From the NCBI RefSeq assembly GCF_056746865.1, contig NZ_CM163382.1: DNA of 64,000 bases; one strand, written 5' to 3'. The translations under genes and the position numbers were made by a program. The notes beneath the pieces are model-generated. The model searched no databases and was not told where the DNA came from. It was given only the letters and a program-made list of their open reading frames with translations. Of the stretch, positions 31,632 through 44,333 are shown piece after piece; the first letter of the stretch is position 1; every line of letters starts with the position of its first letter.

Positions 31632-32211
31632 AATAGAAACTCATTCGAAAAGGGAATGATGCAATGATAATTGCCACAACCTATTTTTACCATCTATAGA
31701 TGGGTTTATTTACATATTATTGGTGAATGCAAGACGTTATTTTTACCAGCCATAAACTTCTTGATCACATAGTATTACGAAAGGATTTTACTGAGAACCA
31801 GAAGTAATATTCCTTACCATCAAAATTCATCATCTTTGCCAAAGAAAAATGTTCAGAAAATAATCCATGGAAAATTGCCCGGAGCGCTTACTATTTTTAT
31901 GGATTGTTAGTCTTTGCATGAGCAAGCGGACTGATACATTTCTCTTTGTTCTCATTCAGAAAATCTCATCAGTCGGCGTTCTGCCCGAGGTTGTGCTTTA
32001 TGGATGCGTTACGCTCCTGATGACGTCATTTGACGTTCAACAGCATCACGGGGCCGCGCGACATTTCACGTCAGTCAGTGCTATCGCTCAGGAACAAATT
32101 TTCCCGAATTGGGATATGCCCGCAAATTGCTGGTGATGTGGGGAGAATCTGGTTGAGTTCGGTAGAAATGATTTTTAGGCAGAACGCTTAAATTGTGGCG
32201 TCCTGAAACGA

Positions 32212-32247: not shown

Positions 32248-32266
32248 TGGTGCCCGGACTCGGAAT
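32248..32266 (-). repeat. 19-nt 3'-terminal fragment of tRNA-Phe (att-site direct repeat, distal island junction)
   Basis: tggtgcccggactcggaat is the reverse complement of the 3' end of E. coli tRNA-Phe (…ATTCCGAGTCCGGGCACCA); sequence diverges from the tRNA body at 32267, so no intact tRNA is present here. Confidence 0.8.
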
Positions 32267-32513
32267 GAAACTGGTTATATAACCAATTGTTTTGTATCGA
32301 CTGTTTTATCCTTGTTCTTTTTGGGGCCACCAATGAGGCCCCCATGTGCAATTCGAATTCTTTTGACGCTATAATCCCTCTTTTTTGTGCTTTGTTGTAA
32401 TCATTTTGTCTGGTTCGATATGCTGAATCGCGGAATCGAAGTAACAACAAAATACAGAGATTTATAAAATACCTGGCTACCTGTGTTAGGGAGCGTTAAC
32501 GCACAGATTTTGT

Positions 32514-32840
32514 TTATGGCTGCCAGAAATGATCTGATGGTTTGTCGTCTGGCTCTGCAAGTACCCTGTTGATATCCCGGGAACCATGAACGATACGTTC
32601 GATACGAACTTCAGTATCCAGTACCCTGAACAGCAGAAGGTAACGACCATACGAACAACCTCTGATCCCAGCCCCTAACTCGGGTCTTTCTCTGTAGAGT
32701 ACTGGCGATTCGGCTATCAACAGACATTGTTGGTAAAGCTCTTCGGTAAAACTGATTGCACGGACAGGATTATCCTGAGCGATCCAGTCACCTATAGCTT
32801 CAAGATCGTGTTCTGCTAATGGTGAAACAGTCAGTTTCAT
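32514..32840 (-). CDS. parE: Type II toxin, ParE/RelE family
   Basis: 108-aa ORF with ParE-like conserved C-terminal region (…RIERIVHGSRD); 4-bp overlap with upstream antitoxin gene. Confidence 0.85.
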   Translation of the reverse strand: MKLTVSPLAEHDLEAIGDWIAQDNPVRAISFTEELYQQCLLIAESPVLYRERPELGAGIRGCSYGRYLLLFRVLDTEVRIERIVHGSRDINRVLAEPDDKPSDHFWQP

Positions 32841-33100
32841 ATTGGCTGTTCACCTTCTGCCATCTTTTTGTATTTGTGCGTCAGTCGCCCGAATACCTCT
32901 TCAGCACTTTTACTTTCACCGCTGTTGATGCCTGCGGTCACGGCGCTCTGGAGTGATTCAAGCTTTATCTGCTGTTCCCGTTCTTCCAGAGCACGAAGTC
33001 CGGCACGAATGACTTCACTTGTATTGTTATACCGACCACTTTCTATTTGTTCGCGGATAAACGTTTCAAAGTAAGGACTGAGGGATACACTGGTAGGCAT
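32837..33100 (-). CDS. parD: Type II antitoxin, ParD family (ribbon-helix-helix)
   Basis: 87-aa ORF MPTSVSLSPYFETFIREQIESGRYNNTSEVIRAGLRALEEREQQ..., typical ParD/COG3609 signature. Confidence 0.85.
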   Translation of the reverse strand: MPTSVSLSPYFETFIREQIESGRYNNTSEVIRAGLRALEEREQQIKLESLQSAVTAGINSGESKSAEEVFGRLTHKYKKMAEGEQPI

Positions 33101-33171: not shown

Positions 33172-34038
33172 TTATGCCTTGCGGCTTTTGTTCACTGTGC
33201 TTGCCAGGGCTTCCGAGTAGTGTCTGGCAATAATATCATTAAGCCTGTCAACCAGTTCTGGTTTCCTGAACGTGATGTGCGCGGAGCCCTTCTTAAAGTA
33301 TCTGATGCTGAACATCTCATCTTCATAGTCCTCTTTACCCTGAACAGACTGGATGTGGTCATCCAGATGAATGGTGATGTTTTCCCGGTTGTCGGGGATC
33401 GGTTTGCCGCTGAACAGATACAGCATTCTTTCCAGGTCGGCAAGTCGATCTGCCTGTTGCCCGGTGATAAGATGAAACCCCCACCGGTCCCACCTCACCA
33501 GGTTGTTGACGATAATTTTACTGCCAAATTTACAGGGTGAATTGTTTTCGTAATTCCAGCTCAGTCCCCTGAAAACATTGATCACCCCACGCTCAAACAC
33601 TTCATCTTTGTTCTGGTGCAGTTGTTCAAATGTGCTCAGAATGTTCGCTTCACTGATTTCCGGAAAATTATCGTATTCCAGTGACCGGTACCATGTATCA
33701 CGGGCCTGCGCATCCATTAATGACAGCATCCCGGAACGTTGCATCAGGTCACGCCAGATTTCGCGATCGAGATTGCGGGTGATGGCTTTCATTGCTGTTT
33801 CCGGTTTATCCATCAGCCAGCAGCCACAGCGAAAATCCTGTTTCATGGCCCAGTCCCGGGCGGTTTTACCTCCAATGCTTTCCGTCAGAACTGAGATTTC
33901 AGTCAGTTGCCGGATAAGTGTGTCGATTTGCAGCAGTGTACTCTTTCGTACAGCCAGAATGTGGCGGATACTGGTTGAGCAGATAACGTCCGTATGCCCG
34001 TTGACCACTTCCGGACGGGAGGCTGTGATATCAGACAT
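33172..34038 (-). CDS. Island-associated hypothetical protein (DUF4942-like)
   Basis: 288-aa ORF with good coding character; family assignment from recalled gene context downstream of cbtA-type modules, not verified. Confidence 0.6.
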   Translation of the reverse strand: MSDITASRPEVVNGHTDVICSTSIRHILAVRKSTLLQIDTLIRQLTEISVLTESIGGKTARDWAMKQDFRCGCWLMDKPETAMKAITRNLDREIWRDLMQRSGMLSLMDAQARDTWYRSLEYDNFPEISEANILSTFEQLHQNKDEVFERGVINVFRGLSWNYENNSPCKFGSKIIVNNLVRWDRWGFHLITGQQADRLADLERMLYLFSGKPIPDNRENITIHLDDHIQSVQGKEDYEDEMFSIRYFKKGSAHITFRKPELVDRLNDIIARHYSEALASTVNKSRKA

Positions 34039-34122
34039 AATCGATATTCCTTTTTGCAGATAAATGAAAACGCCAGCCCTGTTCAGGCTGGCGTCAGTGG
34101 AATGAAGTCTGGTGAGTAATAT

Positions 34123-34320
34123 TTACCGGTTCTGGTGCAGAAGCTGCAGATGACGAAGAGTACGGACATCCTCCCGGGCCCGTTCGATACAGGGCAACAG
34201 TGCTGCCGAATCCGTTTTATCCTCATCGTTGTCAAAGATAATTCCCGATTCGCAGTCGATATTGTCCTGCAGCCACACAATCAGAATATCCAGTGCTGTT
34301 TCCGTGGTTAATGATTTCAT
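34123..34320 (-). CDS. DUF957 family small protein
   Basis: 65-aa ORF MKSLTTETALDILIVWLQDNIDCESGIIFDNDEDKTD... matching recalled CP4-prophage small-protein family. Confidence 0.7.
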   Translation of the reverse strand: MKSLTTETALDILIVWLQDNIDCESGIIFDNDEDKTDSAALLPCIERAREDVRTLRHLQLLHQNR

Positions 34321-34331
34321 GTTGTTCCTGG

Positions 34332-34820
34332 TTACCAGTCGAAAGTGGGCAGGTCAGGCAGGCATTCAGCGCTGGCATCCAGATGAATGAGACTGACGCC
34401 ATAACGCCGGATAAGAGTGACAACCAGACGGCGGAACGTTTTTGACAGTCCCAGGCGTTTAAGTCGCAGAACCGGGTATGACCACGCATCGGTACGTAAC
34501 AGATATCCGCTACCTGTAAAATGAATCCATTCTGATTCGCCGGTGTCATTCGTCTGATGTGACAGCGAGTACAACCAGGCATTGTCCGTTTCCGTGATAT
34601 GTGCGGTACTGCAGCGTATGCCGGTAAGGGCCGCAGATGGTGGCGTGCGCTCTGCTGATGCCCGGTCAGATTCATCAACAACACGAAGGGAGTAACCGTT
34701 ATCGCAGACCACGTTAATCAGTTCAGCGAGAGTAACACCATCGACGTCAACGACAATGCGCCCCATGTTCAGTGCCTGCACGTTAATGCTGTCGGCTTCC
34801 AGCGTCAGGGCCAGTTTCAT
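34332..34820 (-). CDS. DUF5983 (YeeW-like) family protein
   Basis: 162-aa ORF immediately downstream of cbtA, overlapping its stop by 4 bp. Confidence 0.65.
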   Translation of the reverse strand: MKLALTLEADSINVQALNMGRIVVDVDGVTLAELINVVCDNGYSLRVVDESDRASAERTPPSAALTGIRCSTAHITETDNAWLYSLSHQTNDTGESEWIHFTGSGYLLRTDAWSYPVLRLKRLGLSKTFRRLVVTLIRRYGVSLIHLDASAECLPDLPTFDW

Positions 34821-35194
34821 TGTTTCGCCCCCGGATGTTTACCCAAGGTAATGTTATTTACCGTTCTGTAATTGTCGCGGGCCATCAGGCCGGTTGCCCG
34901 GCGGGCCCGGAGGATATCAATACTGTTTATTAACTGAGAACGGGTACAGGCGCTGAATCCCGGCTGGTCGGTACGTACCAGTGCGTATTTTTCAACGAGA
35001 AAGTTCACCGCATCGCACAGTGAAATGCCTGCCTCAATATGCTGCTCAATCACACGTTCATCAGCGAACGGTGTGTCATTCAGTGTGAGGCCGTAATGCT
35101 GGTCCAACAGTCGGGTGAGCAGTGTCTGCCAGATGGTGACGGGAGACGGGCAGCGCGATGCCTCCCGTACGTGTGTGTCAGGTAATGTTTTCAT
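34817..35194 (-). CDS. cbtA: CbtA-family toxin (cytoskeleton-binding toxin, YeeV/YkfI/YpjF family)
   Basis: Translation from MKTLP… is near-identical over most of its length to recalled YeeV; start set at ATG 35194 with GAGG RBS rather than the longer upstream ORF start. Confidence 0.85.
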   Translation of the reverse strand: MKTLPDTHVREASRCPSPVTIWQTLLTRLLDQHYGLTLNDTPFADERVIEQHIEAGISLCDAVNFLVEKYALVRTDQPGFSACTRSQLINSIDILRARRATGLMARDNYRTVNNITLGKHPGAKQ

Positions 35195-35240: not shown

Positions 35241-35615
35241 TTATGAGGTGGTTGCGGGTGCCAGTGTCGGATAAACAGCCATATAAACGTAACCACAGCT
35301 GCCGAGGGTGTCGGCTTCGCAGGTCAGCCCTCTGGCATACAGCGTGACGGTATGCTGATGGCGGGGATTCAGTTCACCGCTGGTGAGCATGAGTTCCAGT
35401 TGTTTCATCAGCAGCGGAAAGGCCTGGTCCAGATGATACGCATCCGCGTCGCTAAACTGCCCCCTGATACCGGCGCGGTCGGCAAGGTAATGCAACTGAT
35501 TGCCCTCCTGCACCAGACGTGCCCCGAAACAGGGCGTCACGGTGCAGGGGAGCCCCCACCAGGGGCGGTCGTTGTTGTTGTCGGGATGCGTTGTCCCGGG
35601 GTGTGTGTCTGACAC
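35241..35615 (-). CDS. cbeA: CbeA-family antitoxin (YeeU/YafW/YfjZ family)
   Basis: 124-aa ORF MSDTHPGTTHPDNNNDRPWWGLPCTVTPCFGARLVQEG… matching recalled YeeU. Confidence 0.85.
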   Translation of the reverse strand: MSDTHPGTTHPDNNNDRPWWGLPCTVTPCFGARLVQEGNQLHYLADRAGIRGQFSDADAYHLDQAFPLLMKQLELMLTSGELNPRHQHTVTLYARGLTCEADTLGSCGYVYMAVYPTLAPATTS

Positions 35616-35694: not shown

Positions 35695-35916
35695 TCAGTT
35701 CAGGGTAACGCTCATCAGACGGACATACGGACCAAAACTGTCCTTACGGCGTTCAGCAAACACGGCCAGCACACCGGGAATATCCTGCACTTCACGGCCG
35801 GTATACGTATCCGTGCTACCGTGCCAGCGGTATTTACCGGTACAGAACGGAAAAAGACGGGATGCAGGATGCTGTTGGTGAATACGCATGGCTTCACCAC
35901 GGGTGATGATTTTCAT
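35695..35916 (-). CDS. DUF987 (YeeT-like) family protein
   Basis: 73-aa ORF in conserved position between radC-like and cbeA. Confidence 0.75.
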   Translation of the reverse strand: MKIITRGEAMRIHQQHPASRLFPFCTGKYRWHGSTDTYTGREVQDIPGVLAVFAERRKDSFGPYVRLMSVTLN

Positions 35917-35978
35917 AATGGGATACCTCTGAAGACAGAAGATAAAAGTGAAAACAGGTGTGATGTGGTTGTGACGGG

Positions 35979-36455
35979 TTAAAGCAGACCGTGTTCGGCA
36001 AAGGAGAATACCTGGTTGCCACCGACTATCAGATGGTCCGGCACCCGGATATCCACCAGGGCCAGCGCCTGTACCAGACGTTCAGTGATAAGCCGGTCTG
36101 CCTTACTGGGGGTGACTTCACCGGACGGGTGATTGTGCGCCAGCACCACGGCAGCGGCATTGTGGTACAGGGCACGTTTAATCACCTCCCGGGGATGGAC
36201 TTCTGTGCGGTTGATGGTGCCTGTGAAGAGGGTTTCACCCGCAATCAGCTGATTCTGGTTGTTCAGATACAGCACCCGGAACTCTTCCCGCTCCAGTCCT
36301 GCCATGTTCAGAATCAGCCATTCCCGTGCCGCATGCGTGGAGGTGAAGGCCACGCCGGGCTCATGAAGATGACGGTCCAGGGTTTTCAGGGCCCGCTGAA
36401 TGAGGCTGCGCTCGCCGGGCGTCATCGCTCCGGGCAGAAAGGAAAGCTGTTGCAT
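35979..36455 (-). CDS. RadC-like JAB-domain protein (YeeS/YfjY/YkfG family)
   Basis: Contains JAMM motif region HNHPSGEVTPSKAD; start trimmed to MQQLSFLPG…. Confidence 0.85.
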   Translation of the reverse strand: MQQLSFLPGAMTPGERSLIQRALKTLDRHLHEPGVAFTSTHAAREWLILNMAGLEREEFRVLYLNNQNQLIAGETLFTGTINRTEVHPREVIKRALYHNAAAVVLAHNHPSGEVTPSKADRLITERLVQALALVDIRVPDHLIVGGNQVFSFAEHGLL

Positions 36456-36470
36456 TATGCTTCTCTCCAT

Positions 36471-36950
36471 TCAGTCGATGATGCGCATAATGGCGCTGCA
36501 TTCCGGATGCTGCAGGGCGTAATCCCGCAACCGATAATAATGGACCGTCATGGCATAATTCTCCGTACGACAGGCGTGATGACTGTACGTCATCAGACAG
36601 GCGGCAATGCCGGCGGCTTCCGGGCTCATTTCAGCGCGGTTACCGTTCATGACGTTAAACAGCACCCATGTTTCGTCATCATCGTCATCCGGTTCGGGTG
36701 CCATAAATGCGCCACCGTTGTTCAGGGTGTACAGATTCCAGATACCACCGCAGTAGTCTTCACACAGACGGTCCATCCAGCCGAAGACACGGGGCTCCAG
36801 GGTCACCCACTGTGGAATGAGGCCAAAATGCTGCGGCCAAAAGCTGATGCGCTGTTCATCAGGGACGAGGCTGGCAACCAACTGAGGCGGATTATTCTCT
36901 GGTGTTGTAGCTGAATAAATTGTGGGGGTATTCTGAGAAACGCTTTTCAT
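36471..36950 (-). CDS. Antirestriction protein (KlcA/ArdB-like, YfjX/YafX family)
   Basis: 159-aa ORF with acidic stretch DDDDDE typical of this family; conserved position. Confidence 0.8.
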   Translation of the reverse strand: MKSVSQNTPTIYSATTPENNPPQLVASLVPDEQRISFWPQHFGLIPQWVTLEPRVFGWMDRLCEDYCGGIWNLYTLNNGGAFMAPEPDDDDDETWVLFNVMNGNRAEMSPEAAGIAACLMTYSHHACRTENYAMTVHYYRLRDYALQHPECSAIMRIID

Positions 36951-37031
36951 GAGATAACTCCTTAAATAACAAATAAAAGTGTGTTTTTCAGGAACGAAAG
37001 CTGAATGATTCCCTCACTCAGGGAAACGGCA

Positions 37032-37850
37032 TCAGCGCAGGCTCTCCAGCATCGTTTCTGCCATCACCCACAATGCGCGGTTGAGTTTAATATCGGTGTC
37101 GATGCTGTGAATGGCCCGGGTATGGATACGTTTTCCTTTTGCACTGCGACCGGAAATCCCGCCTTTCAGCATATTCTCCTGGATGGTCTGATATGCGCTC
37201 CACAGGTCCTTACCGTAATCCTCCCGGCGTCGCGGCGTCAGAATGTCGGCGGTGGTGACGGGCTGATGTTCGTCACCATAACGGTAAGTCAGTGCCGCCT
37301 GTGCCAGCGCCTGGCGTGCCGGTGGCGGCAGGACCAGCGACTGCATGGCATCACGCTTCTCCTCTATCCGGTCAAACACGCCCACCACTTCGTAAGCCCC
37401 TTCAATGACTCTGTCCACCACATTTCCCCGGTGCGGAACACGCACTTCCCCCAGAGACTGGCCACAGACGCACCCGTTCTGGCAGACGAACCTGAAGTAA
37501 CCCGGCAGCATCTGGTAGCTGGAGGTACCGTCATGAGAGTTGAGCAGAATAATTTCAGGGACATGTTCTCCGTTTATCTCTCCGGCCCGCCGCAGACGCA
37601 GCATGTGTTTGGTATATTCCCGGCGGCTCTGGTCGCGCACACGGGTCTGGCAGGCGAAGAACGGCTGAAAGCCTTCCCGCTGCAGATTTTCCAGGACGGT
37701 AATGGTGGGAATGTACGCATACCGTTCACTGCGGGAGGTGTGCCGGTCTTCTCCAAAAATACTCGGGACGTGGTACATCAGTTCTTCGCGTGTCAGTGGG
37801 CGCTCCCGACGGATCTGATTTACATGACCAAAACGACTGGCTAATTGCAT
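37032..37850 (-). CDS. DUF932 (YfjQ/YafZ-like) family protein
   Basis: 272-aa ORF in CP4-like module. Confidence 0.75.
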   Translation of the reverse strand: MQLASRFGHVNQIRRERPLTREELMYHVPSIFGEDRHTSRSERYAYIPTITVLENLQREGFQPFFACQTRVRDQSRREYTKHMLRLRRAGEINGEHVPEIILLNSHDGTSSYQMLPGYFRFVCQNGCVCGQSLGEVRVPHRGNVVDRVIEGAYEVVGVFDRIEEKRDAMQSLVLPPPARQALAQAALTYRYGDEHQPVTTADILTPRRREDYGKDLWSAYQTIQENMLKGGISGRSAKGKRIHTRAIHSIDTDIKLNRALWVMAETMLESLR

Positions 37851-37939
37851 ACTTTGCTCCTTATGAATGAATTAGCGGTATAAACGAAAAAGCCGCGTCT
37901 CCCGGAGAAGACGCGGCCTGATGGATGAAATGAAGACGT

Positions 37940-38173
37940 TTATTGCCTGAGAATTCCCTCACTGGCGAGATACGAATTTAGCTGTTTTCCGGCATCAGGT
38001 TCAAAATTCCAGCACCGCCAGCGTAGCTGCCCTTCGGCATTGCGGATAACCAGCCGGAAATGCGTTCCCTGGTCATCTTCAATAAGCACATTGCGGTAAG
38101 CTGTTGTGACGGCAACCGCCTGTTCGCGTGAGAAAGGGCCTTCGGGCAATAAAACAGGGTGGCAGTCCGACAT
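37940..38173 (-). CDS. DUF905 (YkfF/YpjJ-like) small protein
   Basis: 77-aa ORF; family assignment by recall and context. Confidence 0.6.
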
Positions 38174-43601: not shown

Positions 43602-44333
43602 ATGAATCAACCAATACACAATGCTTACTGGTTATCCCGTTTTGAAAGTATTCTCAACAGTGCCCTGGCGCAACACCGTGCCGTCTCGTTAATCCGGGTG
43701 GATTTACGTTTCCCTGAGTATATGCCTGCCACCATCATGGATACCGATTTAGATTCAGCGGTGATTTCTCGTTTTTTTGCATCCCTGAAAGCAAAAATTC
43801 AGGCTTACCAGCGACATAAACGACGTGCCAACAAGCGTGTGCGTGCAACCACTCTGCGTTATTTCTGGTGTCGGGAGTTTGGCAAGGAAAAAGGCAGGAA
43901 ACATTATCACGTGATATTACTGCTCAACAAAGATACCTGGTGCTCGCCAGGGGATTTCACCGTTCCTTCTTCGCTGGCGACACTGATCAAGCTGGCATGG
44001 TGTAGTGCTCTGCATCTTGAGCCCTGGCAGGGTAATGGACTGGTTCATTTTTCCAGGCGGACGCCTTTCCGTAAACCGACATCATCTGATGCTCGCCCTT
44101 CTTCCGATGATACGCCTTTGTCGGGTGGATGTTCTGATACCAGGAAGGCTTCAGACAAAAAGCCGGGTGAAGCCGCTGTTCTCTGGATCAAGCGTGGTGA
44201 TGTGGAAGCGCTGCAGAAAGCCCGGAACAGAGCCAGTTATCTCGTGAAATATGAGACGAAGCAGCATGACGGTTCCGGGCAACGTAATTATGGTTGCAGT
44301 CGTGGGCCGGGGCGTCTGCTGGATGGCAGGTGA
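43602..44333 (+). CDS. Inovirus Gp2-like / YagK-YfjJ family protein with HUH-type and YxxKYxxK motifs
   Basis: 243-aa ORF; contains HYHVILLL (HUH-like) and SYLVKYETK (rolling-circle Rep motif-3-like). Confidence 0.7.
   Translation: MNQPIHNAYWLSRFESILNSALAQHRAVSLIRVDLRFPEYMPATIMDTDLDSAVISRFFASLKAKIQAYQRHKRRANKRVRATTLRYFWCREFGKEKGRKHYHVILLLNKDTWCSPGDFTVPSSLATLIKLAWCSALHLEPWQGNGLVHFSRRTPFRKPTSSDARPSSDDTPLSGGCSDTRKASDKKPGEAAVLWIKRGDVEALQKARNRASYLVKYETKQHDGSGQRNYGCSRGPGRLLDGR

Follow-up and report, generated by a model that had tools for sequence, protein, structure and literature searches.

What does the 288-aa protein encoded at the distal end of an Escherichia coli genomic island do, and why does its gene lie beside toxin–antitoxin genes? 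The window analysed here, a 64,000-nt (64-kb) stretch of E. coli chromosome, carries cadA, cadB and cadC at 26.1–31.6 kb and then the island, in which an earlier note made from the sequence alone had singled out a well-formed ORF between ParD and a DUF957/DUF5983/CbtA block. The ORF was borne out: it encodes 288 aa from ATG to stop on the minus strand, which had not been given earlier, with an AAGGA Shine–Dalgarno sequence ∼9 nt 5′ of the ATG. RefSeq annotates a CDS of 867 nt here that is 100% identical to WP_001280433.1, a ‘DUF4942 domain-containing protein’. In the Pfam search PF13708 (DUF4942) matched with E = 6.6e-67 and 225.3 bits (gathering cut-off 25), residues 87–275 aligning with positions 1–189 of 190 in the model. 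The note's tentative assignment to a DUF4942-type protein was thus right, since Pfam and RefSeq give the same name, and the homology search did not lead to a different, well-characterised family. It belongs to a catalogued family and was known before, and the gene is in that sense an ordinary one, encoding an exact RefSeq protein from a family whose enrichment in plasmid leading regions is already published. Its parts are as follows:

33172–34038, minus strand: DUF4942 coding sequence (ORF listing, RefSeq annotation, Pfam, dN/dS)
33214–33780, minus strand: Pfam DUF4942 domain, residues 87–275 (Pfam limits)
33781–34038, minus strand: N-terminal extension, residues 1–86, outside the Pfam model and conserved in the family (alignment A1)

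Together with the Pfam match and the RefSeq identity, homologue counts and dN/dS indicate that the ORF is a genuine gene maintained by purifying selection. An exhaustive HMMER search among 1.84 billion proteins returned 2087 cluster representatives with E < 1e-3, and a stand-alone form of ∼255–300 aa is the dominant architecture among them. Homologues occur in 4073 of 5426 complete E. coli genomes (∼75%; median 2 copies, maximum 8), and 3634 E. coli genomes hold a copy spanning at least 80% of the gene. Strong purifying selection acts on the gene, with a median dN/dS of 0.064 over 183 pairs of Enterobacterales orthologues. In alignment A1, which contains 70 stand-alone sequences at 27–54% identity with the window protein as its first row, W95, D201, H254 and N267 are invariant and all kept in the window protein, and about 20 positions are near-invariant; in the N-terminal extension S21 and R31 are near-invariant. 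The signature motif LSW(D/N)Y(K/E)(T/N)NxPxKFG is found in the window protein at residues 159–172 and was tabulated across 70 members. The pI of the window protein is 6.5, and the median over the 70 sequences is 7.3. NCBIfam and PADLOC scans of the protein returned no match, and our literature searches found no report of a functional test for any member of the family. Single E. coli ‘fusions’ that join DUF4942 to RadC, CbtA, antirestriction or GTPase domains exist as well; these single-sequence cases were set aside as likely assembly or frameshift artefacts.

An AlphaFold model made with the 70-sequence alignment (pLDDT 88.7, pTM 0.81, with pLDDT > 90 from residue 20 onwards) predicts a long N-terminal helix at residues 24–54, a helical bundle at 79–159, two small beta-sheets at 174–190 and 237–257, and C-terminal helices, with H254 placed in a beta-hairpin strand and N267 in the next helix. 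Neither the single protein nor the 70-sequence profile matched any PDB sequence, and Foldseek comparison of the model with the PDB returned nothing at E ≤ 1e-3, while comparison with viral models returned probable family members only. Among the known anti-defence and defence families (PADLOC, ArdA/ArdB/KlcA, Ocr), no characterised protein resembling it in sequence or fold was found. A family present in ∼75% of E. coli genomes, with a predicted fold that has no solved relative, is a worthwhile experimental target.

The neighbours are those that had been claimed, with ParD and ParE downstream and DUF957 (by its RefSeq name only), DUF5983 and CbtA upstream. The same-strand upstream order is GTPase, WYL/HTH regulator, a hypothetical gene, DUF905, DUF932, antirestriction, RadC/JAB, DUF987, CbeA, CbtA, DUF5983, DUF957 and then DUF4942. 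From the island boundary to DUF905, the features around the gene are:

32248–32270, minus strand: 3′-end remnant of tRNA-Phe (pheU), 21 of 23 bases, an att-type direct repeat (DNA search)
32514–33100, minus strand: parD-parE type II toxin–antitoxin pair, downstream (Pfam)
32514–32840, minus strand: ParE (Pfam)
32837–33100, minus strand: ParD, PF03693 (Pfam)
33162–33135, minus strand: promoter-like site of parDE's own (promoter scan)
34060–34095, minus strand: GC-rich stem-loop with an 11-bp stem, a 5-nt loop and a T-rich tail (terminator scan)
34123–34320, minus strand: DUF957, 65 aa, immediately upstream of DUF4942 (RefSeq name only; no Pfam match)
34332–34820, minus strand: DUF5983 (YeeW-type), PF25638 and PF19419, with a 4-nt overlap with the cbtA stop
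34817–35194, minus strand: cbtA toxin, PF06755, E = 3.8e-63 (RefSeq start)
35241–35615, minus strand: cbeA (YeeU-family) antitoxin, PF06154, E = 8.2e-55
35695–38173, minus strand: co-oriented upstream block, DUF987 to DUF905 (Pfam)
35695–35916, minus strand: DUF987 (Pfam)
35979–36470, minus strand: RadC/JAB (Pfam)
36471–36950, minus strand: antirestriction, PF03230, 2.4 kb upstream of DUF4942 (Pfam)
37032–37850, minus strand: DUF932 (Pfam)
37940–38173, minus strand: DUF905 (Pfam)

The island boundary is marked by the tRNA-Phe remnant, which lies 244 nt past parE and ∼900 nt past the DUF4942 stop and is followed by a short integrase remnant and then cadC. The query used for this search, the tRNA-Phe (pheU) sequence, gave one match in the window compared with none in 100 shuffles. 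RefSeq annotates no relaxase in the tRNA-Phe island, which has a P4-type integrase system. A 62,375-bp circular, replicon-less record deposited as a ‘plasmid’ holds the whole island and is typed non-mobilizable; in this record the integrase comes 370 nt after DUF4942, and it looks like an excised circular copy of the island. The gene order YeeV(CbtA)–YeeW(DUF5983)–DUF957–DUF4942 agrees with that of the SRL and LEE islands, where YeeW is the equivalent of L0008 (PMC6980539) and the SRL-island paper just tabulates the DUF4942 gene as orf56/L0010 (PMC6980539).

To see how constant this arrangement is, 80 loci from different Enterobacterales species were searched with the proteins encoded around it in the window. 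The co-oriented array always closes with DUF4942, and in 68 of the 80 loci the array ends with cbeA-cbtA followed by DUF4942. Genes found upstream on the same strand are CbtA (68/80), RadC (62/80), CbeA (61/80), GTPase (36/80), DUF932 (36/80), antirestriction (35/80), DUF5983 (27/80) and DUF957 (21/80), so the claim that the gene often follows cbtA-type modules holds, and the cbtA tblastn match typically stops 110–130 nt before DUF4942. The sequence after DUF4942 varies from locus to locus, with integrases of neighbouring islands, small RHH/RelE pairs and AbiE-like pairs, and ParD and ParE follow it in a single locus of the 80. The parDE pair is incidental cargo outside the conserved unit.

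Between the array and the gene stands the stem-loop listed above, with its hairpin at 34095–34069, 27 nt past the DUF957 stop and ∼33 nt ahead of the DUF4942 ATG. An equivalent hairpin is present in 76 of the 80 loci, 25–45 nt upstream of the start codon, regardless of which gene precedes it, and RNAalifold applied to 33 diverse copies gave 8 pairs, 6 of them with compensatory double changes. To judge from this covariation and fixed position, the hairpin looks like a terminator or attenuator that would belong to the DUF4942 unit. The promoter scan returned no sigma-70-like promoter for the DUF4942 gene.

We then compared the island with plasmids. A tblastn search of 72,556 plasmids found DUF4942 homologues in 4709 records, 3966 of them conjugative; most plasmid copies are 31–40% identical over ∼95% of the length, and annotated plasmid DUF4942 genes reach 39.7% identity over residues 14–288 with E = 1e-48 or better. 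In an IncI-type (MOBP/MPF_I) plasmid the gene lies ∼650 nt from mobA/relaxase. In pOXA-48 (IncL) it stands amid JAB, antirestriction, DUF1380 and ssb genes that are all directed at mobA-traI, and in an IncFII Klebsiella plasmid it is flanked by psiA and an antirestriction gene on the upstream side of oriT-traM; the pOXA-48 and IncFII copies both sit among ssb, psiB, antirestriction and JAB genes oriented toward oriT. Beyond Enterobacterales, where the chromosomal contexts are a few individual loci, a Burkholderia pseudomallei island carries DUF4942 with DUF932 and a YqaJ exonuclease, and in an Acidovorax broad-host-range-type plasmid DUF4942 is first in an operon of small genes. None of the IncI-type, pOXA-48, IncFII, B. 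pseudomallei island, Acidovorax plasmid and phage contexts examined contains CbtA. The leading-region survey of Samuel et al. 2024, Nature (PMC11541004) lists two DUF4942 families in its Supplementary Table 1: family 24, YdiA/YgfB, described as uncharacterised and leading-region-enriched, and family 76, which has 551 members at a median position of 6. Families 2, 3 and 9/33 of the same survey are DUF905/YubL-YkfF, DUF932-945/YubP-YafZ and KlcA/ArdB (PMC11541004).

The window copy resembles the plasmid YdiA/YgfB/Orf25 proteins in its full-length homology, its stand-alone form and its co-orientation with DUF905, antirestriction, JAB/RadC and ssb genes. It differs from them in being chromosomal, in a tRNA-Phe island without a recognisable relaxase or oriT, and in being preceded by the CbeA-CbtA pair, which the plasmid copies lack. 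Rather than being among the first ORFs beside an oriT or relaxase, it is at the distal end of the island, and as regards placement it shares with leading-region genes just the co-orientation with antirestriction, DUF932 and DUF905. A literal ‘leading region’ role is therefore impossible here, as the island has no recognisable relaxase or oriT and its circular copy is typed non-mobilizable. Since the island tail and plasmid leading regions share gene families, the tail can be seen as the chromosomal counterpart of the leading-region gene set. It is well supported that DUF4942 is the terminal gene of a cassette common to P4-integrase-type islands and conjugative-plasmid leading regions, and equally well supported that this cassette consists of DUF905/YubL, DUF932/YubP, KlcA/ArdB-type antirestriction and RadC/JAB genes, with CbeA-CbtA added in Enterobacterales. 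The association with the toxin–antitoxin-rich tail that the earlier note had called unexplained is conserved in islands as stated; the tie, however, is to a mobile-element cassette and not to a toxin–antitoxin pair, and common ancestry with plasmid leading regions accounts for most of it.

Domain architecture gives a further view of what the protein might do. A match in the PHROGs ‘DNA methyltransferase’ family, in which the DUF4942 region covers profile positions 82–290 of 548, corresponds to fused phage and metagenomic proteins of 441–578 aa with DUF4942 at the N terminus and a class I methyltransferase at the C terminus, for example Pseudomonas phage phiPSA1 gp22 (543 aa), Aeromonas phage 4_D05 gp31 (531 aa) and metagenomic P0200 (468 aa), the last of which is 40% identical to the window protein over residues 16–279. 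The motifs FFPTP (motif X), VLEPSAGxG (motif I) and MNPPF (motif IV) are present in alignment A3 of 25 fused proteins, and the fused-core profile matches the M.TaqI catalytic domain (residues 22–213, E = 3.5e-15), while profile comparison found no counterpart of the M.TaqI C-terminal recognition domain after the fused core. Every genuine DUF4942 fusion seen is to a methyltransferase domain. The invariant columns of alignment A3 are W90, D191, H243 and N256 in P0200 numbering, and by position and motif in the separate alignments they appear equivalent to W95, D201, H254 and N267 of the window protein. A neighbour-joining tree places the fused forms in at least four groups that are interspersed among stand-alone proteins.

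The first 270 aa of the fusions are thus homologous to the window protein, but the fusions continue into an M.TaqI-like N6-adenine methyltransferase core, whereas the window protein stops right after the DUF4942 module. It has no methyltransferase Pfam match, and motifs I and IV are confined to the extra C-terminal 190 aa of its fused relatives. A methylase identity is rejected on these grounds, the protein ending at residue 288 without methyltransferase motifs, and names such as ‘restriction methylase’ are misleading for it because the SAM-binding and catalytic motifs are absent. The likeness to the M.TaqI C-terminal domain or to HsdS comes from the fusions, where DUF4942 is the sole domain besides the core and takes the place that a recognition domain would have. 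The M.TaqI-like core was not found in the 64-kb window, beside DUF4942 in the island loci, or in complete pOXA-48. A free-standing 187-aa version of it does occur in at least 5000 plasmids, for the most part in IncF leading regions, and the one IncF locus with a stand-alone core that was examined has no DUF4942. In the IncFII plasmid an N6_Mtase-type gene lies 1.9 kb downstream of DUF4942; this ‘N-6 DNA methylase’ was rejected as a cognate core at an hhalign probability of 0.3%. A cis-encoded split enzyme is not supported, since there is no cognate core nearby, the core-bearing IncF locus is without DUF4942, and the IncFII methylase is unrelated. Judged from this gene distribution, the two halves would evidently each work alone.

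Tentatively, we favour a reading that we consider quite possible while somewhat short of probable, namely that DUF4942 is a non-catalytic DNA- or partner-targeting factor that would help mobile elements to establish themselves or to evade defence. The binding target of the module would be either DNA of the element or a partner in DNA processing or restriction, and the module would shield or direct the DNA, without methylating it, upon the element's entry into or reactivation in a cell; its expression would probably be held low, gated by read-through of the conserved upstream hairpin. This reading is consistent with the kept invariant residues, the low dN/dS and the wide carriage in E. coli, with fusions made exclusively to methyltransferase domains whose core is not followed by a recognition domain, and with the plasmid leading-region context, the island neighbours DUF905, DUF932 and antirestriction appearing in the same survey table. 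The B. pseudomallei gene again travels with DUF932 and without CbtA, and the window, island loci and pOXA-48 encode no M.TaqI-like core in cis.

Several observations pull the other way. The mechanism is guilt by association plus domain architecture, and the near-neutral pI argues against its DNA-binding element. The ‘recognition domain’ reading is weakened by the 187-aa core standing alone in so many plasmids, which suggests that the core may recognise DNA unaided by DUF4942. A fixed pocket for a ligand or for catalysis would account for the invariant W, D, H and N residues better than would a specificity domain, which should vary. The window island is without a recognisable relaxase or oriT of the kind a leading region would have, and its circular copy is non-mobilizable. 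A model of a fused protein has two confident domains joined by a flexible linker, but with a pTM of 0.52 the domain arrangement is uncertain.

DUF4942 has the same genomic niche, and the same presumed timing, as KlcA/ArdB-type and ArdA proteins, which are likewise found in leading regions and the island cassette, although it shares no sequence or fold similarity with them. With its near-neutral rather than acidic pI, DUF4942 is unlikely to be an antirestriction protein of the DNA-mimic kind, and any anti-restriction activity is hypothetical. A more specific version, which we regard as possible but rather doubtful, is that stand-alone DUF4942 proteins form a widespread early-acting anti-restriction or DNA-protection class that arose when the non-catalytic module was uncoupled from an M.TaqI-like methyltransferase, and that the island tail is an integrated equivalent of the leading region, hairpin-gated and expressed when the excised circle enters or re-establishes itself in a cell. 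On thousands of resistance plasmids, pOXA-48 and IncI and IncF types among them, DUF4942 is one of the earliest genes delivered to the recipient, and an anti-defence role, if confirmed, would be relevant to the way in which such plasmids and pathogenicity islands overcome restriction barriers.

The alternative that fares best, an unlikely one in our estimate, is that DUF4942 is itself an enzyme, for instance a small nuclease or hydrolase with D91/W95, D201/R204, H254 and N267 as its active site, acting on DNA, a modified base or a defence signal; the methyltransferase fusions would then join two independent anti-defence activities. The four invariant and ∼20 near-invariant positions, with equivalent invariant columns in the fusions, are what such an enzyme would have, and in the predicted model the H254 hairpin strand and the N267 helix may loosely recall beta-beta-alpha metal-finger nucleases. 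The solitary plasmid core, which may not need DUF4942, is also in keeping with independent activities. However, comparisons of sequence and of fold turned up no enzyme resembling it, and the confinement of genuine fusions to methyltransferases argues for functional coupling with methylation.

It is more doubtful still that DUF4942 acts in trans as a specificity or targeting subunit for a separate adenine methyltransferase, Dam or an orphan enzyme, in the manner of HsdS and HsdM. Both halves do exist as separate leading-region genes in different plasmids (4709 records of DUF4942 and at least 5000 of the core), the stand-alone DUF4942 gene of Halomonas phage QHHSV-1 adjoins three small methylase ORFs, and the IncFII plasmid has its N6_Mtase-type gene close by. 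Yet that IncFII methylase is the one unrelated to the fused core, the IncF locus with the core has no DUF4942, and the cognate core is missing from the window, from the surroundings of the island loci and from the whole of pOXA-48.

We consider it improbable that DUF4942 is an accessory third component of CbtA-CbeA, such as a regulator or a second antitoxin. The same-strand cbtA upstream in 68 of 80 Enterobacterales loci is what this explanation has in its favour, but homologues are abundant without CbtA (IncI, IncL, IncF, Burkholderia, Acidovorax and phages), so that co-occurrence with cbtA/cbeA is not obligatory across the family's range. Moreover, a terminator-like hairpin stands between DUF4942 and the upstream genes, and in E. 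coli DUF5983 and DUF957 intervene between cbtA and DUF4942.

Finally, the notion that DUF4942 is a relic without function, left over as the front half when a methyltransferase gene decayed and carried passively, would fit the missing catalytic domain and older names such as ‘restriction methylase’, which reflect ancestry, but it is barely credible and effectively refuted by the selection data (dN/dS 0.064), with the invariant residues kept, the stand-alone form dominant among the 2087 representatives and copies of at least 80% length in 3634 E. coli genomes.

Two features lie directly ahead of the DUF4942 gene on the same strand:

34060–34095, minus strand: conserved stem-loop, GC-rich and followed by a T-rich tail
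34123–34320, minus strand: 65-aa ORF, named 'DUF957 domain-containing protein' in RefSeq

Across 80 DUF4942 loci from different Enterobacterales species (L008–L087), the DUF4942 start codon is preceded at 25–45 nt by the stem-loop in 76, and the structure is kept irrespective of the preceding gene, with compensatory changes in six of its eight pairs. In many copies a conserved GCATAA(T) box is additionally present directly 5′ of the stem. The element looks like a terminator or an attenuator. The DUF957-named ORF itself has no match in the searched copy of Pfam-A (E ≤ 0.01), in NCBIfam, in PADLOC or in PHROGs.

Further upstream, the cbtA stop overlaps the start of DUF5983 (YeeW-type) by 4 nt (window 34817–34820), and because of this stop/start overlap the two genes are suggested to be translationally coupled. 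DUF5983 was always downstream of CbtA in a published survey (PMC10790755). The toxin CbtA may be linked more tightly to DUF5983 than to DUF4942.

Downstream of DUF4942 and parD–parE, two remnants were located at the island boundary:

32248–32270, minus strand: tRNA-Phe 3′-end remnant, an att-type repeat (21 of 23 bases)
about 31891–32050: integrase remnant of ∼160 nt, between the tRNA-Phe remnant and cadC, as annotated in strain MDR_56

The tRNA-Phe remnant, which lies 244 nt past parE, marks the end of the island, and the 64-kb window as a whole contains no intact tRNA gene. Since an integrase remnant separates the tRNA-Phe remnant from cadC, the arrangement suggests that two islands accreted in tandem at pheU.

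The complete island block, from the GTPase through to CbtA–DUF5983–DUF957–DUF4942, is also found on CP057032.1 (L099), a circular 62,375-bp 'plasmid' record that has no replicon type and is typed as non-mobilizable. There, DUF4942 is followed after 370 nt by a tyrosine integrase, which is the junction expected of an excised, circularised island. Within the window, the island encodes a protein of possible relevance to such a form:

43602–44333, plus strand: YagK/YfjJ protein, matching the replication-associated ORF2/G2P (inovirus gene II-like) domain

On the basis of this match, the YagK/YfjJ protein is a candidate rolling-circle initiator that could possibly act on the excised island.

The M.TaqI-like methyltransferase core that is joined to DUF4942 in fusion proteins also occurs alone:

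L100, 11920–12483: M.TaqI-like methyltransferase of 187 aa, catalytic core only, on IncF plasmid NZ_CP141094.1

This protein has no recognition domain, and two ORFs precede its gene in the L100 locus, the first of which we take to be DUF3560/YdbA-like. The 187-aa core is present in at least 5000 plasmid records, being very common in IncF leading regions, and shares 39–40% identity with the C-terminal half of the DUF4942–methyltransferase fusions.
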